DNA of 64,000 nt. Origin: a phage. The position numbers and the translations under genes were made by a program. Location of the stretch: assembly GCA_017676145.1 (NCBI GenBank), contig GCA_017676145.1_3628.1; one strand, 5' to 3'. The notes below the pieces were generated by a model. The model worked only from the letters and a program-made list of their open reading frames with translations, was not told where the DNA came from and ran no database searches. Shown piece by piece: positions 17,793-63,109 of this stretch (the stretch's first letter is position 1; each line of letters opens with the position of its first letter).

Positions 17793-18030
17793 CTTAAATG
17801 CTGGCGACCATGTTGTTGTCAAATGCATCGGGGATTATCTTGGATTCACAATCGGCAATACTTACGAGGCGGTAGTGGCGAAGGTTTACCATGATAAAGT
17901 CCTCAGTCTTGTATTTGACTGCGATGATGATGGGGATGACCGATACGTCTGTGAGGTGCTGGCACGAGACGATAGTGAAGACCAGAAATTCCTGGTTATT
18001 GAACTGAACGGTATTTTTGTAGAACGTTAA
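17779..18030 (+). CDS. hypothetical acidic protein (83 aa)
   Basis: ATG at M23 of track ORF 17713..18030, preceded by aaggagcac SD. Confidence 0.5.
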   Translation: MTKIDLNAGDHVVVKCIGDYLGFTIGNTYEAVVAKVYHDKVLSLVFDCDDDGDDRYVCEVLARDDSEDQKFLVIELNGIFVER

Positions 18031-18058
18031 TTTAAAACAACATAAGGAGACTCTTACT

Positions 18059-18364
18059 ATGGCTAAATCTAAAGTCGAACTGTTCACCTCTCTTCCTTCT
18101 GACACTGCAGAACGTGATCGCCTTCGCAAAACAATCGAAGAACTGGTGGAACTCCAGCTTCAGATTAAAGATCTGAAAGACGCTATCAAGGATATTATTC
18201 TTGTCGAGAAACAGGATCACCTGTACTCTCCTAAGTTTATCAAGTCCTTGGTGGCTACCGAATTCGATATTCGCTATGAGGCTGAAAAACGTCGAGCTAA
18301 AATCGAAGAAGAGGTTGAACACATGTCCGAGGCAGACATTCTGTTCAAACGCTCTGTAGAATAA
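18059..18364 (+). CDS. hypothetical coiled-coil protein (101 aa)
   Basis: aaggagac SD; heptad-like charged sequence; followed by terminator. Confidence 0.55.
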   Translation: MAKSKVELFTSLPSDTAERDRLRKTIEELVELQLQIKDLKDAIKDIILVEKQDHLYSPKFIKSLVATEFDIRYEAEKRRAKIEEEVEHMSEADILFKRSVE

Positions 18365-18373
18365 TGACAAAGA

Positions 18374-18398
18374 GAGGGGCTTGGGCCCCTCTTTTTAC
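18374..18398 (+). terminator. rho-independent terminator
   Basis: gaggggc-ttgg-gcccctc hairpin followed by TTTTT. Confidence 0.65.
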
Positions 18399-18419
18399 TA
18401 TCTATGAAGGAGATTTGAG

Positions 18420-18746
18420 ATGGGTATACCGATCACTGTAAAAGAGTTGAATGAACGTGATGCAGGTGGTCTATGGCCTGCACGAAAAATCCGCTGCGTC
18501 CGTATGAAAGAGAATCTTGAACATCTTGATCAACAGATCGAGGTCGGTGATATTTTTGAGGTCTTCTATTCCAATCGTCGCAACTGGGAAACCATTCAGC
18601 CTTCTGGTTTTGTTCTTGCCAAACTTGATACTGGAGAAGTGATTATCCCTGGGTTAGATATTGTCTTCGAAATTATCCAGGAGTGGGATCCGGATAAGAT
18701 TAGATACGAAGAGTTATTCGGTAAAGGTATTATCAAACCTGTGTGA
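18420..18746 (+). CDS. hypothetical protein (108 aa)
   Basis: gaaggagat SD; track ORF. Confidence 0.55.
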   Translation: MGIPITVKELNERDAGGLWPARKIRCVRMKENLEHLDQQIEVGDIFEVFYSNRRNWETIQPSGFVLAKLDTGEVIIPGLDIVFEIIQEWDPDKIRYEELFGKGIIKPV

Positions 18747-18754
18747 GGTGGATT

Positions 18755-19054
18755 ATGTCTACAAGGGCGGCTAAATACTCCTATATGCCATCAACCTCTG
18801 CAGAGGTAGACTTTAGTTTCGATGTGTTTCCATTGTTTGAGATAGTTCTGGCATACCCAACAATTCTATCTACTCCTGAATCACTTGTGCCTATTAAGTT
18901 GCAGAACGCTATGCATTCCATGCACTACAACAATAAATGTAGACACAGATGGTGTCAGGACGAGGAAAAAGATCTGGACAGTTTGAAAGATTTTGACAGT
19001 CACCTTTTGACCCCTTTCAGTTACTCCAACCTGGACAAGCCCTCATGGGTATAG
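18755..19054 (+). CDS. hypothetical protein (99 aa)
   Basis: ATG at M5 of track ORF 18743..19054. Confidence 0.45.
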   Translation: MSTRAAKYSYMPSTSAEVDFSFDVFPLFEIVLAYPTILSTPESLVPIKLQNAMHSMHYNNKCRHRWCQDEEKDLDSLKDFDSHLLTPFSYSNLDKPSWV

Positions 19055-19079
19055 CAAAATATCAAATTTAAGGCACCTA

Positions 19080-19105
19080 GGACGCTCTGTGGCGTCCTTT
19101 TCTTT
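19080..19105 (+). terminator. rho-independent terminator closing the rightward early-like block
   Basis: ggacgc-tctgtg-gcgtcc hairpin followed by TTTTCTTT. Confidence 0.65.
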
Positions 19106-19267
19106 ATCTGGTGCACGATTGCATACCTTAGATGAATAATCTTATTACAGAGCGTTTAAGGGCGGCCTGTAAACAACTCTCTATTTCGAGCGTAGCGAGA
19201 ACGCACGTCCGTTTTGACCCAAATCACCATACGCTCGGATTTTAACCAAACCCTCGCGGCGTTTCTG

Positions 19268-19296
19268 TTGACACATTCCCGCTCCTGTGATAGTAT
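19268..19296 (+). promoter_or_regulatory. sigma70-like promoter (TTGACA-17-TAGTAT)
   Basis: ttgacacattcccgctcctgtgatagtat; drives region with two coupled micro-ORFs (about 19329-19591). Confidence 0.45.
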
Positions 19297-19710
19297 CCTC
19301 ACATAGTTTGTAGAATATGGAATACGCAATGAAAACATTATCCGAGGTTTTGGTGGTGATCCTGATGATCATTACGTCCATAGCAGTTGTTGCCGGAATA
19401 CTCACGGGTGGAACATGACCAACACACATGCATCTGAAGAGGTGACTATAGAGAAAAACTTCAATTCTGAGGATTCTCTATCTCCGTCCCAGGTGGACCC
19501 TGAGGCTGATGACCTGACGTGGGAGGACATCATAGCCATCTGGTTCTCTATCATGCCTGAGAACGAAGAGTTCAGAGGTGGCAGACTATGAAGCACCGAG
19601 CCCACACAAGTTTATCATGCTAAAGCATGGCCTGAAGAGGCAAACGTGCATAATTCCTGTGCATTGGAACGTATAACCCTGTTCACACTCTCATTTCCAG
19701 AGGAGATTTT

Positions 19711-19926
19711 ATGAAGATAGAAATATTTGGTGGAGCTGACAACACTCGTGGCCTGATTTACCTTGAATTCGATGAATCATACCTGCCAGAGGTGTTAAAT
19801 ATAGACTCTGTTGCTGAGGCTTTGGGAGTAAACCCTAAAGAACTCCACTCTTGTGCTGAGATCGATGGTTGGGAAGAGACCCTGAACATCGATTTCAGTG
19901 AAGTAGAGGATGAACCGCTGGACTGA
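19711..19926 (+). CDS. small acidic protein (71 aa)
   Basis: agaggag SD; MKIEIF start similar to other small ORFs in block. Confidence 0.45.
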   Translation: MKIEIFGGADNTRGLIYLEFDESYLPEVLNIDSVAEALGVNPKELHSCAEIDGWEETLNIDFSEVEDEPLD

Positions 19927-20053
19927 CACACAATTAGCTGCCCGGCTAAAGTGCTGGAAGCACCTATAACACATCTTTCAACTAAATTTCCTACCACCAC
20001 AATCACTTACCTCCCACACATGACTGTTTGCTTGTTTAGTGAGCAGTCATGCC

Positions 20054-52842: not shown

Positions 52843-54825
52843 TTATTTGATGTTATTCTTTGTATCGATCAGTTCACGGTATTCAATCATAGCAGGGGTG
52901 TCCCAATATTTCAAGCCTACATGCTTTAAAAGTGGATATTTCTTTTCCAATCTTGCAATATAGGCCTTCCCGCACTTAACTCGGTTGGCGATTAAGACTT
53001 TGGCACGATGATTCAGCTCACCATACTTCCACGTGGTGCTACCTTCCCACTTGTGGAAATGTGGCTGATAATTTCCAAAATCCTGCATGGGTATAATTTT
53101 ACCTAACTGTCTGTACAGGCTGTCATATGAAGTTTCATTTGCTGCGCGAGTCAGTAAGAATTTCCAAGCATCCTCTTTCAGCAAATGTTCCACATTCTTC
53201 TCTGTAACATATTGGCAATTAGGATCAGTCCAAAGCAGACGAGATTCTGATACCAGGTACAGATCTTCACCTTCAGGGATCTGGAGTGCCGCACGCACAC
53301 GGTCATAATTTTGCTGGTAGATGTTACTCATCTGCCCTAGCCAACAACTTCCGCGTTGGATATCCCCCTCATACGGTATGCAGTGCTTAATCTTCCTGAA
53401 CTCTGCCTTAGTAATACGCTCACGCCGGAAGTAACCATCCTTCTCAAGTTTTTTAACCCAATAACCTGGTTCGTAACGGGTTTTGGTTTCACCTTTCTTC
53501 GTAGGTCGGCGTGGAAGCTCCGATAACAATTTGACCGTATCTGCAAAAAACGGATGGTGTGCCGCCTCTTTAAACTCTTTCACCAGATCCGTGTTACGGC
53601 AATAGAAAACGTTGCGTCCGGTGATCTCGCTTAAGTAGTTACACTTATTTCGGTTATATTTACCGTCTCCGTCGTTAAATACTAAATAAACTCCCCGTAA
53701 GAATTCTACCTTTCCGTAGCAGGCGTAACCTATGCGGCCTTTATTTAAGCCGCCAGCGAAGATCTCGCAGTCCCCCAAATTCCCTAGCCCTGTTTCTTCC
53801 CAGCGGTCATACATAAAATTCTTACCGAAGATGTGCCCGAACACTCCACTGTTCTTCATCATCTCGCGTGCTTCTGAGGATGTTTTTGCTGTCTTCAGTT
53901 CTGCAACAACTTCTGCTCCACGAAGGCGAATGCCTTCTTTGACAAAAGCTTCCAAACGCTCTTGGAATCCACCATCATCGTGACCTTCTATGGTCCATTC
54001 ACGCCCTGGGTTAATATTGCAATCTCCGATAGGGATCTCTACACAAATTGCAGGATAATCTGTTAGTGTTTCCAGGAACTTAGAACGGTAAGGTTGGTGA
54101 CCCATTACCACACGACTCTCGTCAGAACTGGTATAGCCCTTCAGGATGGTCATCTTCCAACCATCTTTTTCATAATAATACTGCGCCTCTACTTTGTCTC
54201 CCTCCAGCATCTTGCTCGTCATCGGATCGGTGACAGTGAACGGAAATTTTGCATAGCGCAAACATGATGCAATAGCAGTGCGATATTTCAGAACATGCTC
54301 TTTCTTAACATGAAACTGAACTTTTACCCCGTTGTGCTCTTCAGTCTTCCGCTCACGGATCTTGGTGACATTTGGGATGCCCTGATCCAAGAACAATAGA
54401 TATGTGCTTTCCACACCATTGTGCACACTGATTACATCGAAAGTGTCTACCATGCTGAACGGGGCCTTTGAACCAACACCCTTATTACCAACCAGAGCGT
54501 TGCTATTGCGCTTGGTTGACTCACCGAGGTTCATGAAGGTGTTGCGGACCATCTCTTCTGACATGCCTAGGCCAACGTCCTGCACAAAGAAGTAGGGTTC
54601 AAGATCTGTAGGAGAGTGAATAATGATCGGTACATCACCCCGTCCAGACTCAACATGGGAGTCTACAGCATTGAAGATTGGTTCACGGCAGCTTGCCAGC
54701 ACCTTATCTTCATAAATCCCTTTAATGATTAACCCAAAAGTCTCTTTATTCAGAGAAATTGATCCCCTTGTGACCTCCATATTCCCAGTTAGCACTGCTT
54801 TAGTTTCATTACTGTTTACAATCAT
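52843..54825 (-). CDS. rIIA: rIIA-like protein with N-terminal GHKL-type ATPase motifs
   Basis: N-box-like EPIFNAVDS, G1-like VQDVGLGMSEE, G2-like GNKGVGSKA in first 120 aa; 660 aa total, size and motif order as in rIIA family. Confidence 0.55.
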   Translation of the reverse strand: MIVNSNETKAVLTGNMEVTRGSISLNKETFGLIIKGIYEDKVLASCREPIFNAVDSHVESGRGDVPIIIHSPTDLEPYFFVQDVGLGMSEEMVRNTFMNLGESTKRNSNALVGNKGVGSKAPFSMVDTFDVISVHNGVESTYLLFLDQGIPNVTKIRERKTEEHNGVKVQFHVKKEHVLKYRTAIASCLRYAKFPFTVTDPMTSKMLEGDKVEAQYYYEKDGWKMTILKGYTSSDESRVVMGHQPYRSKFLETLTDYPAICVEIPIGDCNINPGREWTIEGHDDGGFQERLEAFVKEGIRLRGAEVVAELKTAKTSSEAREMMKNSGVFGHIFGKNFMYDRWEETGLGNLGDCEIFAGGLNKGRIGYACYGKVEFLRGVYLVFNDGDGKYNRNKCNYLSEITGRNVFYCRNTDLVKEFKEAAHHPFFADTVKLLSELPRRPTKKGETKTRYEPGYWVKKLEKDGYFRRERITKAEFRKIKHCIPYEGDIQRGSCWLGQMSNIYQQNYDRVRAALQIPEGEDLYLVSESRLLWTDPNCQYVTEKNVEHLLKEDAWKFLLTRAANETSYDSLYRQLGKIIPMQDFGNYQPHFHKWEGSTTWKYGELNHRAKVLIANRVKCGKAYIARLEKKYPLLKHVGLKYWDTPAMIEYRELIDTKNNIK

Positions 54826-55322
54826 TTATTGCGCTCCTTGTAGTAGATATGACTCCCGAATTGAGCTGTCCTCTGCATCTTTTTTGCCCATTCCGGTCGT
54901 ACTTTTGTTGTATGATAGTGTGTTGCTCCACCTGTTATATCCATAGCCATGTATGCAACATGGTTGTTATTATAGACCTTTAGAAGCATCTTTGCAAGAC
55001 TTTTAGCGTGATCCCATGAATCTTTTTCTGTCACCTTAAAAGTTTTGCCGTGGTTTGTCCACGAAAACTGGTTAGGTTGGTAGACAATCTTTCTTATAGT
55101 GTCTGGGTATTTAGGGTGAGATTTCCTGTTTAGTGTGGCAAACCCAGATGCCAACATACCCATCGTGCCATCTCCTCTGGCTTCCCTGTAGATATTGCAT
55201 GCCAGAATGTTCTCCTTAGTATCCGATGGCTTGCAGGTGTGATATACTTTTTGTTTTGGTGCTGCAACAACAGGCAGCGATAAAAGTGCGCTCAAAATAA
55301 TAGCAAAGATCTTAATTTTCAC
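54822..55322 (-). CDS. secreted SleB/CwlJ-family cell wall hydrolase
   Basis: N-terminal signal peptide MKIKIFAIILSALLSLPVVAAP; catalytic-domain motifs NIYREARGD, LNR, IVYQPNQFSW match SleB/CwlJ. Confidence 0.65.
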   Translation of the reverse strand: MKIKIFAIILSALLSLPVVAAPKQKVYHTCKPSDTKENILACNIYREARGDGTMGMLASGFATLNRKSHPKYPDTIRKIVYQPNQFSWTNHGKTFKVTEKDSWDHAKSLAKMLLKVYNNNHVAYMAMDITGGATHYHTTKVRPEWAKKMQRTAQFGSHIYYKERNK

Positions 55323-55332
55323 AATAACTCCA

Positions 55333-55359
55333 AATAGAAAATCCCCGCCGAAGCGGGGG
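55333..55359 (-). terminator. rho-independent terminator
   Basis: - strand ccccgc-ttcg-gcgggg hairpin followed by ATTTTCTATTT. Confidence 0.6.
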
Positions 55360-55371
55360 TGGTCTTAGAAA

Positions 55372-55752
55372 TTAGTCGTAGTGTGCCAAAATCTCTCCAT
55401 CGTTGCAAGTTCCCTCTACGAAGTTGTGAAGATTCATGCACTCGTCTTGGTAGAAGAATTTACCGCTTTTCAGCCGTAGACCAAACAACTCCGCATCTCC
55501 ACGATGGCAAGCCTCTACAAGTTCATAGATTTCATACGGTAACTCTCCATCGTCATGGAAGAACCCCGCTTTATCGTTGACATAGATGAAGAAATAGTCA
55601 CTGCTGTCGCAAGCGTCTAATATTTTAAACCAGATTTCATCTACATCTTTTTCTCTGATATCGATCACGCAAGTGGAGCTGCATTCGTACTCCTTCTCCG
55701 GCTCCTCGGTCAATACCACCAGGTAGTTTCCCCGCTTACCTACTTTAGCCAT
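55372..55752 (-). CDS. hypothetical Cys-containing protein (126 aa)
   Basis: Track ORF. Confidence 0.5.
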   Translation of the reverse strand: MAKVGKRGNYLVVLTEEPEKEYECSSTCVIDIREKDVDEIWFKILDACDSSDYFFIYVNDKAGFFHDDGELPYEIYELVEACHRGDAELFGLRLKSGKFFYQDECMNLHNFVEGTCNDGEILAHYD

Positions 55753-55761
55753 ACAACCTCC

Positions 55762-56946
55762 TCAAGCTTTAGCTAAAATGGCGCTAAACTCTTCACCAAA
55801 CTCTTTTACAATCTTCATCAGGTTTGGGTATGCTTTGATCAGCTGAGCAACGATCTTGTCCCGGCCTTTACCAATAAGTAAGGCATTTCCTAGGGCGTTG
55901 GGTTTCATCATCGCCATAAAGACTGAGAATACAAAGTCTCGGTTCTCATCCTTGAAATTTTCCCAAAGGAAATCAAGGAAGTTTGCCACGCAGCTAACAA
56001 GATCTTCGTCTGAGACACTTGCATTTTCCATCATATTCCGAATAGCAATACAACCTTCAGACCCAAGAATCCACAAAATATCTGGCTGCTTAGGACCTAC
56101 ATACTCTTTGCAACCCCCTGCCATAATCCGACCGATTTCTGGCAAGTTTCGTTTCTTGGTGTGGTAGGTCCAGATTTCTACCGCTGCAGTGTGACCAATA
56201 GCACCTTGCAGAAGAACACGAGCCATAGCGTCAGAAATAATACCGCTGTCAAAATCGTGCAGGATGTCAGATGCAGCAACCCAAGATCGCGGTGTAGCAA
56301 AAGATGGACAATTAATCTCAGCCATAGCCTCATAATTATCGATAGCTGATGGAACTCTTTTCAGATATCCAATTACAGAGGAATGCACACCATTAAGGAA
56401 TGCGTAGTCCTCAATAAATACCTCTGCACTGCTTGTAACTTCTACAATGATAAAGCGGTTAGCCAGAGGGGCTTCGAGCGCTGAAAGAACAGCACCATCC
56501 GTAGCACGGTTACCTGCAGCTACAAAAACAGAGCCCTTAGGAAATGCATAGGTGCCGCACTTGTGGTCGAGCATAATTTGCATTGCAACCTTCTGCAGGT
56601 AGTTATCTGCATGAGTAAGCTCATCCAGAAAGATAATTCCGCTCCAGTCCGAGTCTGCAGGCCAAAATTCTGGAATTGCAAACACTGTGCGTGTAGTTCC
56701 ATCTGCCTCTACAGGGATAGGTAGTCCAGACAAGTCAGCAGGATCTTTATCTGACAGCCGCACGTCAACCAGGTTGTCATCTCGCTCACCGAACATATTA
56801 TCAGCAATCTGCTTCATCACCTGGCTCTTCCCCACACCCATCGGTCCTAAAATCAGGACAGATCGGTTATGACGCTGGGCAAATTGAATAATAGCTGGCA
56901 ACTCGCGGACAGTGATTTGACCACTTTCGAATACGTTTCTTGACAT
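55762..56946 (-). CDS. MoxR-like AAA+ ATPase
   Basis: Walker A ILGPMGVGKS, Walker B IIFLDELTHA, sensor-1-like VAAGNR; 394 aa. Confidence 0.75.
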   Translation of the reverse strand: MSRNVFESGQITVRELPAIIQFAQRHNRSVLILGPMGVGKSQVMKQIADNMFGERDDNLVDVRLSDKDPADLSGLPIPVEADGTTRTVFAIPEFWPADSDWSGIIFLDELTHADNYLQKVAMQIMLDHKCGTYAFPKGSVFVAAGNRATDGAVLSALEAPLANRFIIVEVTSSAEVFIEDYAFLNGVHSSVIGYLKRVPSAIDNYEAMAEINCPSFATPRSWVAASDILHDFDSGIISDAMARVLLQGAIGHTAAVEIWTYHTKKRNLPEIGRIMAGGCKEYVGPKQPDILWILGSEGCIAIRNMMENASVSDEDLVSCVANFLDFLWENFKDENRDFVFSVFMAMMKPNALGNALLIGKGRDKIVAQLIKAYPNLMKIVKEFGEEFSAILAKA

Positions 56947-57215
56947 TAGTAAAAGTCCTCTACTTGTGTGTAAGTGTTTTCAAAGTTTTCCAAAACAGAC
57001 ATCACATCGGATCTGTCAATATCATACGCAACTCTCCAGCCATATGCAACCCTTTCTGCTGTTGCCTCTTCTGGAGCTAGTCGTCTGCTGGCATGAAAGA
57101 GTGTTGGAGTACACTTTCTTGCTTGCCCTCTAACTTTCCCATAATAATATCTGTGAATATCTTTGTCAAAATTTAATTCTTTTTCTGCACGAAGTTCGTA
57201 CTGCTGGTATAACAT
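56946..57215 (-). CDS. hypothetical protein (89 aa)
   Basis: Track ORF; start overlaps upstream stop. Confidence 0.45.
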   Translation of the reverse strand: MLYQQYELRAEKELNFDKDIHRYYYGKVRGQARKCTPTLFHASRRLAPEEATAERVAYGWRVAYDIDRSDVMSVLENFENTYTQVEDFY

Positions 57216-57259
57216 CTCTACTGCTCCTTAAGCAGCATCCTTGCCGCCATCCCTACCCA

Positions 57260-57640
57260 CTAAAATGCAGTCCGAATCCAGACAAGGTTCTTATCTGCCC
57301 AATCATAAAGGCAAGTCATTGCACTATTGAATTGCTCACACGGAGGGTAATCTTCTTCCATCCGGCGCATAGCGGATCCTTGTGGGTATAACTCCAGTGC
57401 TGCAAACCACGCATCGTAGTCATCCACGGTGTCGAAGTAGTATACAACATCCTCCAACTCAGGATCGAACTTTGAACTATCAGGATCCAGTTGTTCAGGG
57501 AACTTGGAGCGTAACTTGCCAGCCACAATACTTGCCAACTCGCTAACATGCTTGTTGTCCCACTCTACCAGTTTCCCGTCTTCAGCTATGCGTCCTAACC
57601 ACTGATCATGAAGGTCAACTGTTGTCTTCCACTGGGCCAT
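57260..57640 (-). CDS. hypothetical acidic protein (126 aa)
   Basis: Track ORF; agaggtga SD. Confidence 0.5.
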   Translation of the reverse strand: MAQWKTTVDLHDQWLGRIAEDGKLVEWDNKHVSELASIVAGKLRSKFPEQLDPDSSKFDPELEDVVYYFDTVDDYDAWFAALELYPQGSAMRRMEEDYPPCEQFNSAMTCLYDWADKNLVWIRTAF

Positions 57641-57642
57641 TA

Positions 57643-57900
57643 TCAGTTCACCTCTTCTTCTCGTTGCAGTTCAAGATACCCGTAGGTCTGGATATCTTCA
57701 AGGGTGTGGAACTCCCCATCTGCCGCTAAGGCACGGACAACCTGGCATAGGGTTTTATAAGGTACTTTCTCCAAACCTAGATTCAGCGCAGGAAAAACCT
57801 TATCTAAGTCAACAAAATATACAAACTGTAGCTCACCAGTTTCAAAAGGCGTATCTTCGATAAACATCTTCTCGGCATTGGTTAAGATTTGCACTTTCAT
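57643..57900 (-). CDS. hypothetical protein (85 aa)
   Basis: Track ORF; start overlaps upstream stop. Confidence 0.45.
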   Translation of the reverse strand: MKVQILTNAEKMFIEDTPFETGELQFVYFVDLDKVFPALNLGLEKVPYKTLCQVVRALAADGEFHTLEDIQTYGYLELQREEEVN

Positions 57901-58256
57901 TATTCTACCTCCTCTTCTTTTTCTTCAGTATTAGTTTCAGTGCTACCCCACTCTGGAGTTTCCACCTCGATAGTAAACTCACGCACTACACGGTAATTGC
58001 CCATGAAGCGCTCCACTTCTTCAAGGCTTATGGAGAGGCCATTGGCAACCAAGTCTGCAGCACCCTTCTCTACCAGGTAGTCCAGATTGGCTTCCAAGGC
58101 TTCAGGCTCAAACCCTGTCAATGCAATCATATAACCTTCCCCTTCATCAAGGAGGGCAATACAGCCCAACTGATTTTCTTTAAAAAAGCAGTGACCATCA
58201 CTATTGATTGGGTGTTCATTACAGTAAATAGCTGCACGATAAGTAACTTTAGACAT
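57900..58256 (-). CDS. hypothetical acidic protein (118 aa)
   Basis: Track ORF; aaggagg SD. Confidence 0.5.
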   Translation of the reverse strand: MSKVTYRAAIYCNEHPINSDGHCFFKENQLGCIALLDEGEGYMIALTGFEPEALEANLDYLVEKGAADLVANGLSISLEEVERFMGNYRVVREFTIEVETPEWGSTETNTEEKEEEVE

Positions 58257-58268
58257 TGGTAGGCCTCC

Positions 58269-58547
58269 TTAGGCAACTGTCATTTTACATTCTTGAAATT
58301 TTAACACAAGACGGTGATTGTGTCTAGTGTCTAAAAAGATTTTTTCAACCATCAGGCACACGGTATAACCGTCCGTCTTGTTGACAACAAAATCCCCAGG
58401 GTGAGGGAGAATGTCTCCGGGATTGGGGAAACATAACCCGCTCAAGAAGGCATCATCGGTGGTGGACTTAATGGATTTCCACACACTATCTGCCTGAACA
58501 TTCTCACCCACATAGTATACACTACCACATGCCTTCATCATAGTCAA
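58269..58547 (-). CDS. hypothetical protein (92 aa)
   Basis: Track ORF; start overlaps upstream stop. Confidence 0.45.
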   Translation of the reverse strand: MTMMKACGSVYYVGENVQADSVWKSIKSTTDDAFLSGLCFPNPGDILPHPGDFVVNKTDGYTVCLMVEKIFLDTRHNHRLVLKFQECKMTVA

Positions 58548-59443
58548 ATCTCCGCGTAAATTAAACTGGAATCAGTATACTTCTTTAACGGGTAAATATC
58601 CTGTCCATAGATGCCGTCATTAAACACCTCATCTACCCAAAGGCTACACTTATATCCCATCATTTCTAAAACGCCCATCTCTTCTTCGGTAAACTTATCA
58701 CCACTCTTGCAAGATGTCAATACCTCATTCTGCACTCTTGCTACCTCGAAGCGGTTATTGGCAATATCACTATTGGCAATCAAATACTCACCTAAAGGGT
58801 GTGCAGCATTAAAGATGCACAGTGGACGGTTGACGTAATAGTCTCCCGGTGTATAAAAATTGTTGAGATCCTTCACCAGAACATTCTTATCAGTCACTTC
58901 ATTTATAACATCATGCATATCACACATCTTTATATGTTTGAGGATTCCATCCCCCATCACAAAATAAAAACTTGCTGAGACACTCTCGGCATAGATCTTA
59001 CTAGATCCGTTGTAGTTGTATTTTACGCGAATGCTCACAGGGGTTTTGCCTGTCGCGTTAGCCATCATCCAAAGGAACGGAAGTTCAAACTTCTCCTCTG
59101 AGGAAACAAAAGGTGAAGTTGCCAGAGATCGGAAACCACCAGAGAAGTTGAAAGTTACAGAGCCGCTCCGGCGATATGATACCGCATATTCTACTTTTAT
59201 ATCGACATAGCCGTTGGAGTAAGTGTGGCCTCCATTATCCAGATATGTCCACTTATCAGATCCGGATACCAGCCTACGCTCAATAACCTTCATTACTATA
59301 GGAATTAGCGGGTTGGTACAAACCGATTTTGAAGTAGCTTTATCATCCAAAGCCTCGTAAATTGCAGAAAGGATATCGCCTGCTGAGAGATTAGTTGTGA
59401 TATCTTGTTTCCATCGAGTGCTAAAGCTGTTAAGATTTGCCAT
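58544..59443 (-). CDS. hypothetical protein (299 aa)
   Basis: ATG at M15 of track ORF 58544..59485 (caggag SD), chosen because the - strand promoter -10 lies at about 59484-59489. Confidence 0.5.
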   Translation of the reverse strand: MANLNSFSTRWKQDITTNLSAGDILSAIYEALDDKATSKSVCTNPLIPIVMKVIERRLVSGSDKWTYLDNGGHTYSNGYVDIKVEYAVSYRRSGSVTFNFSGGFRSLATSPFVSSEEKFELPFLWMMANATGKTPVSIRVKYNYNGSSKIYAESVSASFYFVMGDGILKHIKMCDMHDVINEVTDKNVLVKDLNNFYTPGDYYVNRPLCIFNAAHPLGEYLIANSDIANNRFEVARVQNEVLTSCKSGDKFTEEEMGVLEMMGYKCSLWVDEVFNDGIYGQDIYPLKKYTDSSLIYAEI

Positions 59444-59483
59444 GATTAAGTACTCCTGTGTTCGTTTTCTTTCGAATGGGTGC

Positions 59484-59512
59484 ACTATATCGTGGATTTA
59501 GAGTAAAGTCAA
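59484..59512 (-). promoter_or_regulatory. sigma70-like promoter (TTGACT-17-TATAGT), leftward arm of divergent pair
   Basis: - strand ttgactttactctaaatccacgatatagt. Confidence 0.5.
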
Positions 59513-59525
59513 CACGTTTTTGAGG

Positions 59526-59554
59526 TTGACATATTCCCAGGCACTTGATAAGAT
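59526..59554 (+). promoter_or_regulatory. sigma70-like promoter (TTGACA-17-TAAGAT), rightward arm of divergent pair
   Basis: ttgacatattcccaggcacttgataagat. Confidence 0.5.
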
Positions 59555-59585
59555 TTCTCCACCTACAGAGCACAAGAGACAACTC

Positions 59586-60575
59586 ATGAATCTTGAAAAA
59601 TATTATACACCAGAAGAGTTAGAGCGCCTGCTCAAAAAATACAGACGCAAACAAAATAATGCACGGAAACGAGATATAGAGTTCAACCTGTCGTGGGAAG
59701 AATACCTCCTATTTGGTAAAAAACTTTTAGGAGAGGGGGTATGCGACTATACCCTTATACCTTTCGACATGCACACAGATGAAAACGGGCTGGGGAATCC
59801 TTTCTACCCATCTCTGGAGCGGATAGATGATGAAGGTCCTTACGCAATTGATAACTGTTGTGTGGTAGGATTGAGGTGTAACTCTCTGAAAGACTGCCTG
59901 GTAGATAAAAAGACCGCAATCTTGATTAAAGACAAAACTGATCGAAAAATTGTCCAGCAGATGATGCTCCACCTGAGCGAAGAGCGCATGGAGAAATTGA
60001 AAGGTGATTACACTTTTGAAGATTTCATCTTGCAATATGGGACGGAAGAGGATAAACTGGCACTCTTTGACGAAGAATGGGAGGAAGATATGTCACCAAT
60101 GCAGGATTTTAAAAACTTCATGGCTAACCGTGGAGCCAACAAGCACATTTCTGACATTGTAAACGAGCCTGCAGCAGAGGAGATTGAAGAAGTGGAGCAA
60201 CAGGCTTACGAAGAGGAAAAAGAGCCTCAAGGGGACGAAGAAGAGCTTACAGAAGAGGTTCCTGCACTGCCTGACGATGTTGAGATTGCCAAAGCTTACA
60301 CTTTCTATTGTCAGACGTTCTACGATGCAGGTATGAAAGTTGATCTGTCATTCAGTCAATTTAAGAGCACGTACATTCGAAAATGTTGTGCTTTAACTGG
60401 TGAGCGTCTCGGGGTCGGACTTAAACCACTATTAGTGACCGACTGGAATAAAGGTTTCACCAAGGGCAACTTTATGGTAGTATCTCCAATTATGGAGAAG
60501 GCTATGACAGACCTTATGAAGACCACTCGCATGACAATGACCGAGTTGGCTGGTATTTTCAAGCACGTTAAATAA
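59586..60575 (+). CDS. acidic protein with two HNH-like nuclease-type motifs (330 aa)
   Basis: ATG at M23 of track ORF 59520..60575; two segments resembling SxxRID..GY..xN..V...N..K (PSLERIDDEGPYAIDNCCVV...NSLKD and LTGERL...DWNKGFTKGNFMVVS); long Glu-rich linker. Confidence 0.35.
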   Translation: MNLEKYYTPEELERLLKKYRRKQNNARKRDIEFNLSWEEYLLFGKKLLGEGVCDYTLIPFDMHTDENGLGNPFYPSLERIDDEGPYAIDNCCVVGLRCNSLKDCLVDKKTAILIKDKTDRKIVQQMMLHLSEERMEKLKGDYTFEDFILQYGTEEDKLALFDEEWEEDMSPMQDFKNFMANRGANKHISDIVNEPAAEEIEEVEQQAYEEEKEPQGDEEELTEEVPALPDDVEIAKAYTFYCQTFYDAGMKVDLSFSQFKSTYIRKCCALTGERLGVGLKPLLVTDWNKGFTKGNFMVVSPIMEKAMTDLMKTTRMTMTELAGIFKHVK

Positions 60576-60587
60576 TGACAGGGGCCA

Positions 60588-62069
60588 ATGGCCCCTTCTG
60601 GAGTTTTAATGGATAGCAGAAGTTCAGAAATCATTGCCGCACAAAAAGATGACGCCTTGCGAATGCTGCAGGCAGCACGCATGTATCTTCTTGAAAAGCT
60701 GCCGTTTTATGGCACACTGTTGTCAGGGTTGCAGTTCGTAGAAAACCACACATGGTGCTCCACTATGGCAACAGACCATAAACGCATTTATTACAGCCCT
60801 GAGTTCATTATGGGGTTGGCGGATGAGCGCAAAACCATTCTTAAAGCATCTTTGACTGACAAGCAGTTTGAGATGGCTGAGGTTTTCTATTCCCCAAAAT
60901 CTGTGAAAGAGGTGGCATTTCTTCTATCGCATGAGGTGGGGCATATTATCTGTGATCATCTGGTCCGTGGCAAAAGTTTTGAGCCGGAGCTGTTCAATAT
61001 TGCCTGTGATCATGTTATCAACACAGGTCTTGTGGTTGACTTTAGCAAGCCTCCTTGTGTTTTCTTCCCGAAGGGGAAAAGCACTACGTTTGTAAAAGGT
61101 AAGCCTTTTGGCTTCTTAGCTAGTTGCTACTGTGACATGAGGTTCCATGGATGGATTGCTGAGAACGTCTATGCGGTTCTTGATAAGCAAAGAGATCAGA
61201 ATAGCGGTAAAAGTAAGAACGGTAAAGGCGAGAGCTCTCAAGGAGATAAACGACAAACCGATGATCACATGAGTGGTAACGGTGGCACTAGCGATGATCT
61301 TGGAAAGGCGATGGGGTATGATCAGCCACAACCAGTGATCAGTCAATCTGATAAAGATCAAGCCATGCAGGACTCTGGTGACATGTTGGAAGCAGCAATG
61401 CAGGCTTCCGGAGGTCGTTGCCCTGAGGCTGTGCGTGAGTTTGTCAAGAACAGAGGTAAGCCTGTAATCAATTATATAGACATCATTAAGCAACGTATGC
61501 TGTCTAAACGAAAGGCTGAACTAACCTATAGAAAACCCGGTCGCCGATCTGGGTCTTTGACCAGCACAATGCGAAAAGTTGGGGCTATAAACAAGAATCA
61601 GCACGTTGTTGTTCCAGGTCGTAATCCGGAAAACACTATAGATATTGTGGTGGCTCTAGACGTTTCTGGATCGATCTCCCAAAGAACTTTAAAGAAAATG
61701 TTCAATGAGATCACTGGGTTGTGCAATCTGTATAAAGAGTTCAAGGTTACGATGTTCTGCTGGTCAACCGAGGTTGGAGAGGTTAAAGTATACACTCGTG
61801 GGAACATCGACGAGATGATCAACTATGAGGTCCACTCAACATGGGGAACAACAGCCGCTTGCGTGTTCGAGTATCTGGACGCTAACATACCAAATGCAAA
61901 AGATGTCATCGTCCTGACCGACCTATACTTTGAGCATAACTTTGAACAAAAGGCTGTTGACAACAAGTGGAAAAAGTACGATACTCTATGGGTCCTCACT
62001 GAAGGGTATAATAAAAATTATATCCCGAGCTTTGGGAAAACTGTGGAATTAATCGAGTACGCTAAGTAA
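60588..62069 (+). CDS. von Willebrand factor A (vWA) domain protein with N-terminal HExxH metallopeptidase-like domain
   Basis: HEVGH zinc-binding-type motif in N-terminal half; MIDAS motif VVALDVSGS in C-terminal half; 493 aa; typical partner architecture of MoxR AAA+ ATPases. Confidence 0.7.
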   Translation: MAPSGVLMDSRSSEIIAAQKDDALRMLQAARMYLLEKLPFYGTLLSGLQFVENHTWCSTMATDHKRIYYSPEFIMGLADERKTILKASLTDKQFEMAEVFYSPKSVKEVAFLLSHEVGHIICDHLVRGKSFEPELFNIACDHVINTGLVVDFSKPPCVFFPKGKSTTFVKGKPFGFLASCYCDMRFHGWIAENVYAVLDKQRDQNSGKSKNGKGESSQGDKRQTDDHMSGNGGTSDDLGKAMGYDQPQPVISQSDKDQAMQDSGDMLEAAMQASGGRCPEAVREFVKNRGKPVINYIDIIKQRMLSKRKAELTYRKPGRRSGSLTSTMRKVGAINKNQHVVVPGRNPENTIDIVVALDVSGSISQRTLKKMFNEITGLCNLYKEFKVTMFCWSTEVGEVKVYTRGNIDEMINYEVHSTWGTTAACVFEYLDANIPNAKDVIVLTDLYFEHNFEQKAVDNKWKKYDTLWVLTEGYNKNYIPSFGKTVELIEYAK

Positions 62070-62084
62070 GAGAGGGGGTTATTT

Positions 62085-62348
62085 ATGGCAACAGAGTTAA
62101 AATTTGCATCAAACCGTAAAACTAAGAAATATCTGTCCTCAGTGGCTCCAGGCACTGTGGTGATGTTTGTTGATGAACTTGGGGATGTGAATACAGCACT
62201 TGTTGTAAAATCACATCCTGCAAACATATATGTTGGGGTATTTGACCTGTTCAGAAAAGTGTTTGTAGAACTACCCCACAGTTTAGTTGTTACAGAAATG
62301 GATGCCTGCATAGAAATTCTTGGCGAAGTTATGGTGGAGGAACAATAA
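62085..62348 (+). CDS. small protein (87 aa), paralog array member 1, C-terminal GEVMVEEQ
   Basis: Same length and K-rich N-terminus/GTVV core as next two ORFs; C-terminal tail resembles EVVEE family of block 1. Confidence 0.55.
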   Translation: MATELKFASNRKTKKYLSSVAPGTVVMFVDELGDVNTALVVKSHPANIYVGVFDLFRKVFVELPHSLVVTEMDACIEILGEVMVEEQ

Positions 62349-62611
62349 TGGCTACTAGCATTGTATTCAATTCTAAGGTGAAGAACAAAAAGCGTGCAGA
62401 CAGCTTTCCGTGTGGGACCGTGGTAAGTTGCGACGGAGACGGCATTCAAAACATAGTTATGATTGTCAAAACAGGAGAACATTGTGTGTGGGGGTTCGAT
62501 TTAGAAAATAATGAGTTGTACGATCTGCCACCAAACATGAAAGTTACAGAGCTTGACACCAAAATTACCATCCTTGGAGAGACAAGCTATTCAAAAGAAG
62601 GAGGAGAATAA
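62348..62611 (+). CDS. small protein (87 aa), paralog array member 2
   Basis: MATSIVFNSKVKNKK...CGTVV; start overlaps upstream stop. Confidence 0.55.
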   Translation: MATSIVFNSKVKNKKRADSFPCGTVVSCDGDGIQNIVMIVKTGEHCVWGFDLENNELYDLPPNMKVTELDTKITILGETSYSKEGGE

Positions 62612-62874
62612 TGACCACAAAAATCACTATCGCAGAACCGAAAGCTAACACTCAACCTATCGAAAAGTTTAAATGCGGGGAGGTGGTAACATTTACACCA
62701 GATAATGAAGATGCTAAGATTTTCGCCATGGTCACAGCTGAGTGGATGTGTGACAATACCACACAGGTTCTGCGTTTTGACACCTATCTTACAGATGAAA
62801 TCAGGAACGATAAGATCGTGACTGGTGTGGATACTGAGATTATTTTCTACAAGAGCTTTTTAGAGGGTTTCTGA
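62611..62874 (+). CDS. small protein (87 aa), paralog array member 3
   Basis: MTTKITIAEPK...CGEVV; start overlaps upstream stop. Confidence 0.55.
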   Translation: MTTKITIAEPKANTQPIEKFKCGEVVTFTPDNEDAKIFAMVTAEWMCDNTTQVLRFDTYLTDEIRNDKIVTGVDTEIIFYKSFLEGF

Positions 62875-62875
62875 T

Positions 62876-63109
62876 ATGGCAAAAATTCGTAAATTATCCA
62901 GCAATCAAGTTGTGAAAGACTTTGAATCTGGAGAGATTCTGTATGTTCGTGATGCAGATGACGAAGGTGAAGATCTTGTTATGCTAGTAGGACACGCTGA
63001 AGACGGATGCATACAGGCTGTTTTTCTTGAAACAGCTATGGTGCACTGGATAGAGCTGGACCTGAAAGCACGAAAACCTAAAGCAGAGATCCTGATTTAC
63101 GAAGATTAA
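62876..63109 (+). CDS. small acidic protein (77 aa), paralog array member 4 (divergent)
   Basis: MAKIRKLSSNQVV...GEILYV; immediately follows member 3. Confidence 0.5.
   Translation: MAKIRKLSSNQVVKDFESGEILYVRDADDEGEDLVMLVGHAEDGCIQAVFLETAMVHWIELDLKARKPKAEILIYED

Follow-up and report, generated by a model that had tools for sequence, protein, structure and literature searches.

The genes located at positions 55762..56946 (minus strand) and 60609..62069 (plus strand) of the DNA analyzed here, a stretch of 64 kb referred to as the window, most likely encode the two components of a single ATP-driven remodeling/protease machine that has a core function in the development of the phage. We assign this reading a probability of roughly 0.6. 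The window belongs to a Vequintavirus, namely an rV5-like E. coli phage, with 93-95% nucleotide identity to deposited genomes. The first gene encodes a MoxR-class (NorQ/CbbQ-like) AAA+ ATPase of 394 aa that is equivalent to rV5 gp4 and orthologous to N4 gp24. The second encodes a protein consisting of a zincin domain (DUF2201_N), a disordered linker, and a VWA/MIDAS adaptor domain, and is equivalent to rV5 gp12 and orthologous to N4 gp25. Both genes had been annotated before; one is a copy of a chaperone-type ATPase gene and the other of the gene for the adaptor-protease that accompanies it. The labels for rV5 genes 4 and 12, "MoxR ATPase" and "DUF2201_N", date from 2013, and gp4, gp12, and the equivalent proteins of >100 deposited Vequintavirus genomes show 96-100% amino-acid identity to the window proteins. 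The gene order, the predicted P010 and P011 promoters, and the t003 terminator of rV5 are all as in the window, with no substantive difference. No experiment on any phage member of the pair was found in the searchable literature, and we agree with the first-pass annotation of this DNA that the function of phage-borne MoxR-vWA pairs is poorly defined.

The ATPase matches PHROG 1297 ("ATPase") with an E-value of 4e-110. In a Pfam scan of the window protein no AAA family reaches threshold; AAA_5 is matched with an E-value of 0.006 (17.0 bits versus a cut-off of 22) and bpMoxR with an E-value of 0.008 (15.7 bits versus a cut-off of 27). AAA_5 and AAA_3 are each matched by 39 of 70 aligned homologs, with best E-values of 2.4e-9 and 1.2e-8, respectively, and bpMoxR is matched by 19 of the 70. 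The homologs that carry these domains are ∼29-32% identical to the window ATPase in alignment A1 and 31-37% identical over the best BLASTP segment. The Walker A residues G37, G39, K40, and S41, the Walker B residues D108 and E109, the sensor-1 residue N146, and R147, R164, and R220 are invariant in all 70 sequences, and an arginine finger and sensor 2 are present. A profile of the family matches the AAA modules of Midasin at 1.7e-12. As judged by DSSP, the AF2 model of the ATPase (pLDDT 86.5) contains a helix-2 insert, formed by strands 75-81 and 84-90 following the helix at 69-73, and a pre-sensor-1 β-hairpin, whose short strands at 129-134 precede β4. These two elements mark the AAA+ clade of MoxR, McrB, dynein/midasin, and the sigma54 activators. 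In a Foldseek search with the model, ranks 1-16 are occupied by NorQ (9qh4-9qhg) and CbbQ2 (6l1q), with E-values of 3e-8 to 1e-6 (3e-8 for the top NorQ entry and 1e-7 for CbbQ2) and target-normalized TM-scores of 0.61-0.66. The earlier assignment of a MoxR-type AAA+ ATPase to this gene is borne out by its invariant catalytic residues and by its closest structures.

The partner protein had been described as the combination of an HExxH domain with a vWA/MIDAS domain encoded at 60588..62069, and this architecture is likewise confirmed. The match to Pfam DUF2201_N (6e-28) scores 98.6 bits versus a cut-off of 23.2, and a second match, to the VWA-like DUF2201 domain (3.6e-11), likewise exceeds its Pfam cut-off. 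The C-terminal domain displays a VWA (Rossmann-like α/β) fold. The two proteins are assigned to the MoxR and VWA families, respectively, the window ATPase itself remaining below the Pfam cut-offs. The start codon is probably ATG 60609, which yields a protein of 486 aa, rather than ATG 60588, which yields one of 493 aa. This choice is favored because GGAG lies 5 nt upstream of ATG 60609, because a GC hairpin has ATG 60588 in its loop, and because relatives are annotated at 486 aa. The hairpin corresponds to a GC-rich palindrome, AGGGGCCAATGGCCCCT (60580..60596, plus strand), positioned between the stop codon of the upstream Srd-like gene and the VWA start, and it is not followed by a proper T-run on the plus strand.

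The VWA protein's MIDAS residues, D358-x-S360-x-S362, T421, and D445, are all invariant in 59 homologs. In the N-terminal domain, the HEVGH motif occupies residues 115-119; H115, E116, and H119 are invariant in the same 59 sequences, as are H124 and D141, both of which are candidate third zinc ligands. With H124 the invariant pattern reads HExxHxxxxH. The catalytic glutamate is invariant in alignment A2 and nearly invariant in alignment A3. Weak matches to M48 were observed for 24 of the 59 members (best 2e-4) and to SprT-like peptidases for 16 of them (best 5e-4), with selecase and BepA matched at E-values of ∼0.04-0.06. Fold searches with the N-terminal domain returned no solved peptidase among the matches, and no characterized member of the DUF2201_N zincin family was found in the searchable literature.

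The order of genes in the region is the minus-strand ATPase gene, six small genes on that same strand, divergent predicted promoters at ∼59.5 kb, and then an Srd-like gene and the VWA gene on the plus strand. The ATPase and VWA genes are separated by 3.6 kb and lie on opposite strands. Divergent promoters near 59500 had been proposed previously, and consensus sigma70-type sites can indeed be predicted there. The leftward one, TTGACT-17-TATAGT (59484..59512, minus strand), would serve a unit extending from p299 through the ATPase gene and a 126-aa gene downstream of it, and the rightward one, TTGACA-17-TAAGAT with a TG extension (59526..59554, plus strand), would serve the Srd-like gene through the VWA gene. 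In rV5 the promoters P010 (leftward) and P011 (rightward) were predicted at the same two sites. Note that the 18 promoter predictions for the region are not above the shuffled expectation of 13.6 ± 3.4. Beyond the last gene of the leftward unit, the 126-aa one downstream of the ATPase, the hairpin CCCCGCTTCGGCGGGG (55343..55358, minus strand) resembles an intrinsic terminator and has a T-run after it; in rV5 it is listed as t003 (-16 kcal/mol).

The six intervening minus-strand genes noted earlier are present as ORFs (56946..59443, or to 59485) encoding proteins of 89, 126, 85, 118, 92, and 299 aa, with the 89-aa ORF overlapping the ATPase start codon. All six proteins match PHROGs of unknown function, and none has a match in Pfam, NCBIfam, or PADLOC. 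When these six, together with the 126-aa ORF located after the ATPase gene, were compared with other Vequintavirinae genera, the intervening 126-aa ORF (57260-57640) was the only one of the seven small ORFs with homologs there, namely in Seunavirus, Avunavirus, and L021. As judged from these comparisons, the six genes are lineage-specific filler and not conserved partners of the ATPase/VWA pair, and the suggestion that they form a module with it is not upheld. The Srd-like gene is conserved in other Vequintavirinae, separately from the small genes. This gene (59586..60575, plus strand; rV5 gp11) heads the rightward unit and is assigned as an Srd-like "anti-sigma factor" gene on the basis of PHROG 3118 (2.6e-111) and the rV5 paper. 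Two HNH-like motifs had been ascribed to it. What is found is a single N-terminal HNH/EndoVII-like region, comprising residues ∼13-124 when numbered from ATG 59586, that matches endonuclease VII, HNH, and Srd PHROGs with E-values of 2e-13 to 6e-7. The C-terminal half matches its own family only, comparison of the two halves reveals no similarity (E 3.0), and a Pfam scan of the protein returned nothing, including no HNH match.

That the MoxR and vWA genes are genuine partners, as had been surmised, is supported by the adjacent ATPase-then-VWA operons that their homologs form in phages of unrelated lineages as well as in bacterial chromosomes. The ATPase gene is followed by the VWA gene on the same strand, at a distance below 700 nt, in 82 of 89 informative sequences, a count dominated by one metagenomic clade, such that the independent support amounts to ∼10 lineages. 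The adjacent arrangement is observed in N4, LUZ7, Certrevirus, Aeromonas phage 2L372D, N4-like contigs, Serratia phage BF, a RaK2-like phage, Alcyoneusvirus, and a large metagenomic clade. Bacterial chromosomes carry it next to htpG, hsp15, thioredoxin, and lon; these AAA_5/DUF2201 operons, for example that of Sulfurivermis fontis, have the same gene order and domain architecture as the phage pairs but are outside a phage context and show only ∼22% identity. Only in Vequintavirus, Avunavirus, and Seunavirus are the two genes split and divergent, and despite this layout both are retained with intact motifs in Av-05, GAP31, and NINP13076. The pair is present in all five Vequintavirinae genera sampled, and the numbers of ATPase and VWA protein records per genus run closely in parallel (Escherichia, 216/214; Pseudomonas, 108/102; Pectobacterium, 26/26; Cronobacter, 17/17). 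Clustering at 50% identity divides the zincin-VWA family, taken at E≤1e-30, into at least 15,172 clusters. In the N4-like phages, gp24 and gp25 are two of 14 core genes and are middle genes. The Schitoviridae proteins N4 gp24 (AAA ATPase) and gp25 (vWFA) are homologous to the window pair (tblastn 2.6e-25 and 2.9e-17, respectively), although the identities are only ∼21-27%. They share its domain architecture and its placement in a pre-late region with rIIA/rIIB, helicase, and DNA polymerase. In N4, however, the genes are adjacent, co-directional, and transcribed by N4 RNAPII, whereas in the window they are on opposite strands behind sigma70-like promoters.

The closest structural matches to the window ATPase belong to the NorQ/NorD and CbbQ/CbbO systems. 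In NorQD, the VWA domain acts as a plug in the NorQ pore and binds the target through its MIDAS site, and the linker is remodeled by ATP hydrolysis. NorD resembles the window partner in that a disordered linker connects its N-terminal domain to a C-terminal VWA domain with a MIDAS. The N-terminal domains of NorD and CbbO, on the other hand, are not peptidases, their VWA domains are approximately twice as large and contain a pore-inserting finger, and their targets are metalloenzymes (cNOR and Rubisco). The phage ATPase differs from NorQ and CbbQ in having an extra helical C-terminal region of ∼120 aa. By gene linkage and by analogy with NorQD and CbbQO, we infer that the two window proteins interact physically as halves of one machine, namely a NorQ/CbbQ-type MoxR-class AAA+ hexamer and a single adaptor protein; the 6:1 stoichiometry and the remodeling of the linker are extrapolated from the same two systems. 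The C-terminal VWA domain of the adaptor would dock on the ATPase ring, its MIDAS metal site would hold a target, and the putative N-terminal zincin, tethered by the disordered linker, would act on it. The pair would represent the rV5-lineage copy of an ancient ATPase-then-VWA operon, also preserved as N4 gp24/gp25, in bacterial chromosomes, and in several lineages of jumbo phages. A rearrangement in Vequintavirus, Avunavirus, and Seunavirus would have put the VWA gene behind the Srd-like gene, across the same divergent host-type promoter region, and both genes would therefore still be switched on together, before the late genes. The most likely function combines ATP-driven remodeling with limited proteolytic cleavage, both directed at a protein complex required for the phage's own development, with a target that may belong to replication or nucleotide metabolism or may be an early-made morphogenetic component. 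The neighborhoods of the pair are mixed: nucleotide-metabolism and replication genes flank it in the N4-like phages and the metagenomic clade, and structural genes are found close to it in Serratia phage BF, LUZ7, and RPP1. The machine itself would not be part of the virion.

A less likely reading, albeit one with a published precedent, is a chaperone dedicated to virion assembly in which structural proteins are processed proteolytically. A MoxR-vWA system with an N-terminal metallopeptidase was described in group 2.2 jumbo phages by Iyer, Anantharaman, Krishnan, Burroughs, and Aravind (2021). It contains the same three domains, and the window pair has direct homologs among its members (RaK2-like, 121Q, Serratia BF, and PA5oct). 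That description covers jumbo phages only, where the genes are adjacent, and virion assembly was assigned by analogy with the role of p618/p892 from Acidianus two-tailed virus (ATV) in tail development. The ATV proteins are the only viral MoxR-VWA pair with biochemistry: p618 (MoxR) binds tail proteins as well as p892 (VWA), which stimulates the ATPase. ATV differs from the phage in the window in being an archaeal virus, with p618 a major virion component and with no metallopeptidase domain. Structural genes do adjoin the cassette in Serratia phage BF, and in RPP1, LIT1, and LUZ7 the gp24/25 homologs have a "second structural module" nearby. Against this, the N4 pair are middle genes whereas the virion genes are late, and the window pair is situated in a host-promoter early region alongside rIIA/rIIB, distant from the morphogenesis genes. 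Neither gp4 nor gp12 is among the rV5 virion proteins detected by mass spectrometry, the phages that share the pair differ widely in their virions (podoviruses, myoviruses, and jumbo myoviruses), and the bacterial chromosomal homologs have no virion to build.

Early or middle expression from predicted host-type promoters, beside an Srd-like host-takeover gene and rIIA/rIIB, would also suit a host-takeover or anti-defense protease, in which the VWA/MIDAS domain captures a host defense factor, sigma factor, or nucleoid protein for destruction by the ATPase-powered zincin. Anti-defense genes are typically accessory and variable. The pair, in contrast, is strictly kept as core across Schitoviridae and Vequintavirinae, whose hosts differ greatly, and its chromosomal homologs reside in housekeeping neighborhoods. 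Moreover, a PADLOC search with ten regional proteins gave only P-loop-level matches for the ATPase (E of at least 5.6e-4) and nothing for the other nine. The anti-defense module entertained in the first-pass annotation is consequently disfavored, and we regard it as quite improbable. Still less probable is a classical MoxR-VWA metal-insertion or activase chaperone of the NorQD, CbbQO, or CobST-like type, in which the HExxH domain handles metal or binds the target with no cleavage. Its appeal lies in the NorQ/NorD and CbbQ structures and in the genes for thymidylate synthase, dCTP deaminase, exonuclease, and RNR that recur as neighbors of the pair; a possible job would be to activate a nucleotide-metabolism metalloenzyme of the phage or the host. 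The conservation of the catalytic glutamate and the peptidase-type family of the domain, with its weak M48 and SprT-like matches, argue otherwise, and no single metalloenzyme accompanies the pair in all lineages. The least credible reading is that the proteins became independent after the split in Vequintavirus, with the ATPase finding a new partner among the six small upstream genes. The two genes are now in different transcription units and the 89-aa ORF overlaps the ATPase start codon, but all of the split lineages examined keep the two genes and every motif in them, both units start at the same divergent predicted promoter region, and the small genes, the 126-aa ORF at 57260-57640 excepted, are unconserved beyond the genus.

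Two points of annotation bear mention. The label "HNH endonuclease" carried by the VWA family in PHROG 1314 and RefSeq is an annotation error, a Pfam search of all 59 members having returned DUF2201_N and DUF2201 and nothing else. In the rV5 record, gp12 and gp13 are split, which probably reflects a frameshift or a difference in gene calling.

In a nucleotide search with the 7.5-kb region carrying the ATPase and VWA genes, 122 deposited phage genomes matched with identities of 90-99%, nearly all of them Escherichia phages belonging to the genus Vequintavirus (rV5-like myoviruses). In the matching Vequintavirus records the ATPase is labelled "MoxR ATPase" or "ATPase", the VWA gene "putative metallopeptidase" or "VWA-like domain containing protein", and the gene between the pair "anti-sigma factor". 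The 2013 paper on rV5 lists gene 4 as "MoxR - ATPase" with 394 residues, gene 12 as a conserved protein carrying PF13203 (DUF2201_N), and gp11 as a probable Srd homolog. The pair was thus already annotated in rV5, a phage MoxR-vWA-peptidase pair was described in 2021, and it is no new kind of system; its novelty is therefore low.

A MoxR-type AAA+ ATPase had been assigned to positions 55762-56946 on the minus strand in the first-pass annotation. The reading frame is present, and the assignment holds. Searched alone, the protein gave Pfam AAA matches that were all below threshold and, against the PDB and NCBIfam, only P-loop-level matches to ClpB/ClpC; its class was then settled by a family profile and a structure model. 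It also matches PHROG 1297 (4e-110). The homologs on phage-like contigs, with BLASTP identities of 31-37% (~29-32% in the alignment), carry Pfam AAA_3, AAA_5, and bpMoxR, with AAA_5 and AAA_3 matched by 39 of the 70 aligned sequences. The family profile matches the AAA modules of Midasin/Rea1 at 1.7e-12. The AF2 model (pLDDT 86.5) displays both a helix-2-insert hairpin and a pre-sensor-1 hairpin, the marks of the AAA+ clade that holds MoxR. Among solved structures it lies closest to NorQ, determined in complexes with the VWA domain of NorD, and to the Rubisco activase CbbQ2 (E ~3e-8 to 1e-6; TM 0.61-0.66 normalised to the target), and the ATPase is accepted here as MoxR-class and NorQ/CbbQ-like. 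It differs from these relatives in an extra C-terminal helical region of ~120 residues that has no assigned counterpart. The residues of Walker A (G37, G39, K40, and S41) and Walker B (D108 and E109), along with N146, R147, R164, and R220, are invariant in the alignment, which argues from sequence that the ATPase is an active enzyme and not a relic. A PADLOC search with the proteins of the region gave no meaningful matches. Public labels for the ATPase family vary badly and include "ribosomal protein uS19" and "replication protein large subunit".

The protein encoded at 60588-62069 on the plus strand had been described as an HExxH domain followed by a C-terminal vWA/MIDAS domain. This description was borne out by the presence of the reading frame and by Pfam matches to DUF2201_N (6e-28) and to the DUF2201 VWA-like domain (3.6e-11), both above the cut-offs; a single-sequence search of the PDB gave zero matches. 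The true start of the gene is most likely the ATG at 60609, yielding a product of 486 residues, because a GGAG lies 5 nt upstream, the ATG at 60588 falls in the loop of a GC hairpin, and the relatives are annotated at 486 residues. The hairpin is formed by a 7-bp GC palindrome, AGGGGCCAATGGCCCCT, within 60580-60609, between the stop codon of the Srd-like gene and the VWA gene. Since it lacks a plus-strand T-run, it may function as an RNA-stability or processing element rather than as a terminator. The zincin-VWA family comprises more than 15,000 sequence clusters. Its public labels are badly inconsistent, and include "HNH endonuclease" (PHROG 1314 and RefSeq N4 gp25), "anti-sigma factor", "homing endonuclease", "DNA repair ATPase", "Zn-dependent hydrolase", and "gp25-like protein"; an HNH domain was found by Pfam in none of 59 members.

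Profile HMMs of the ATPase and VWA families were built and run on the open reading frames of all loci retrieved. In 82 of 89 informative sequences, the ATPase gene is followed on the same strand, within less than 700 nt, by the VWA gene. Most of the 82 come from one metagenomic clade, and independent support is thus to be counted by lineage. Besides that clade, adjacent genes occur in N4 (gp24/gp25) and LUZ7; in three further N4-like contigs, two with the order RNAP2, ATPase, VWA, dCTP deaminase, ThyX and the third with a variant of the RNAP2, ATPase, VWA, dCTP deaminase order without a ThyX match; in the Certrevirus phages F5M2A and SSBI34; in Aeromonas phage 2L372D; and in Serratia jumbo phage BF, a RaK2-like coliphage, and an Alcyoneusvirus. 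They are also adjacent on the chromosomes of Sulfurivermis and a related gammaproteobacterium, with htpG, hsp15, thioredoxin, and lon nearby, the bacterial contexts covered being three loci from a single lineage. Among the co-directional lineages observed, the two genes are non-adjacent in PA5oct alone (locus L008, 9141-11902), in which 2.9 kb containing three small reading frames and a 498-residue putative homing endonuclease lie between them. Phage-record counts per genus are nearly equal for the two proteins, and the pair is kept in all five Vequintavirinae genera sampled and in several jumbo-phage lineages. The proposal that the ATPase and the vWA protein are partners is therefore upheld by their adjacency in unrelated phage lineages and bacterial chromosomes, with both the MoxR and VWA families confirmed.

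A split, divergent layout is common only to Vequintavirus, Avunavirus Av-05, Seunavirus GAP31, and an IMG/VR contig (L021), and all motifs of both genes are intact in every split lineage. In Certrevirus (L014), an adjacent ATPase-VWA operon lies opposite the Srd-like gene across a divergent promoter region, and the simplest history is thus a transfer of the VWA gene from one arm of this region to the other. Salmonella phage NINP13076 was considered as a counter-example with no VWA gene near the ATPase, and was rejected when the gene was located at 96.4-97.8 kb. Its record (MZ326168.1; L017 and L102-L105) is 161 kb long, compared with ~145-148 kb for its relatives, and contains internal inverted repeats of 83-96% identity, a DNA ligase and a primase in pieces, and two copies of the class III RNR genes; it is probably chimeric or misassembled. 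When 52843-56946 is compared with N4 (L010) and LUZ7 (L009), rIIA, rIIB, and a helicase are observed within a few kb of the ATPase and VWA genes in both groups, and this shared neighbourhood suggests a common ancestry of the whole early/middle module in Schitoviridae and Vequintavirinae. In N4 and LUZ7 the DNA polymerase is likewise near the pair.

The two families, their intact motifs, and the conserved linkage of the genes were demonstrated, and it was concluded that the two products form one machine. The best mechanistic template is NorQD, in which a NorQ hexamer is bound by one NorD, whose VWA domain inserts a finger into the pore; the target, and not the ATPase, is bound at the MIDAS site, and the linker joining the NorD domains is twisted and stretched as ATP is hydrolysed. 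In the phage VWA protein, residues 312-345, which include a near-invariant R319/R320 motif, are a candidate for such a finger. On this template, the phage ATPase hexamer would serve as a motor whose action reaches the tethered zincin by way of the VWA domain and the disordered linker, driving it against a target held at the MIDAS site. The interaction of the two proteins, their stoichiometry, and the remodelling of the linker are all inferred by analogy. Given that the recent NorQD structures offer a concrete template and that rV5-like and N4 phages are genetically tractable, the question of what the pair acts on is directly testable.

That the function of phage MoxR-vWA pairs is poorly defined, as had been remarked, agrees with the literature. 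The 14 core genes of N4-like phages include N4 gp24 and gp25, both of them middle genes whose function is given as unknown. Searches of the literature returned no experimental work on any member of the pair and nothing functional on DUF2201, COG3864, or MoxR in rV5. Neither gene is treated in the CRISPRi-ART and phage Tn-seq papers, and the PA5oct omics paper, in which genes are numbered differently, was uninformative. The anti-defence module suggested in the first-pass annotation is disfavoured: the pair belongs to the core genes of phages whose hosts differ widely, and its bacterial homologs are of a housekeeping type, both of which favour a part in the development of the phage itself over an accessory one against host defences. 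Iyer et al. (2021) proposed virion assembly with proteolytic processing for the MoxR-vWA-peptidase pair of jumbo phages, citing ATV p618/p892. The timing and position of the genes indicate a function outside the virion and before the late stage: in rV5-like phages they have host-type promoters beside rIIA/rIIB, in N4 they are of the middle class, and neither is on the list of rV5 virion proteins from mass spectrometry.

Genes for dNTP synthesis and replication flank the pair in N4-like phages, the metagenomic clade, and the Aeromonas phage. One reading, which we consider quite improbable, is that the pair is a replication-associated protease that uses ATP to strip proteins from DNA, a phage and bacterial counterpart of the eukaryotic Wss1/SPRTN-Cdc48 system. 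In its favour, an HExxHxxxxH motif and weak SprT-like matches are found in the zincin, a VWA adaptor links this domain to an AAA+ ring, and helicase, polymerase, and exonuclease genes accompany the pair in those same groups. If this reading were true, the universal presence of the pair among N4-like and rV5-like phages would signify an essential step in phage DNA replication. Structural genes are close to the pair in Serratia phage BF, LUZ7, and RPP1. For the non-virion, pre-late machine, the target may be either replication-phase or early morphogenetic, the mixed neighbourhoods giving no choice between the two.

Every reading frame described previously in the region is present, including the six on the minus strand between the pair and the one on the plus strand ahead of the VWA gene. 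The six intervening genes were rejected as conserved partners, and the surrounding genes do not form the module that had been envisaged, since only one of the six has homologs outside the genus. This 126-residue frame (57260-57640, minus strand), two genes upstream of an 89-residue frame, is the sole intervening gene kept in Seunavirus, Avunavirus, and the IMG/VR contig. The 89-residue frame, which has no homologs outside the genus, ends on the ATPase start codon, and the sharing of base 56946 (within 56943-56949) suggests that the two are translationally coupled. The 299-residue protein at 58544-59443 (minus strand) is called "putative alpha 1-3 fucosyltransferase" in many relatives; as it matched nothing in Pfam, NCBIfam, or PADLOC and the remaining Vequintavirinae loci studied contain no homolog, the label looks unsupported. 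The Srd-like protein had been credited with two HNH-like motifs. Only its N-terminal half matches PHROGs labelled endonuclease VII, HNH, or Srd, the C-terminal half matches solely its own family, and Pfam gave no match in the protein; a duplicated HNH domain was rejected, as the halves share no similarity.

Downstream of the VWA gene are four consecutive reading frames of ~77-87 residues (62085-63109, plus strand), previously termed a paralog array. The first two are indeed paralogs (39% identity, E 3e-11), and the other two show no similarity detectable by BLASTP, so that at the level of sequence the array is real only in part. Sixteen deposited records, MG065646, MG065655, and MG065658 among them, are named "Campylobacter phage" with Campylobacter jejuni as the stated host; their ATPase and VWA proteins are 98-99% identical to those of E. 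coli Vequintavirus phages, and the deposits look like host misattribution or contamination.

The divergent promoters expected near 59500 were recovered as predicted, outward-facing consensus promoters in the 59.44-59.59 kb intergenic region, where they coincide with the predicted rV5 promoters P010 and P011. The promoter count in the region, 18 versus 13.6 ± 3.4 in shuffled sequence, is not above expectation. A terminator-like hairpin 3' of the gene downstream of the ATPase corresponds to the predicted rV5 terminator t003. The GC skew changes sign at ~19 kb (within 18000-20000) and at ~59-60 kb (within 58000-60000), the latter coinciding with the reversal of transcription at the divergent promoter region. 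The authors of the rV5 paper reported that the skew changes where the orientation of transcription changes.
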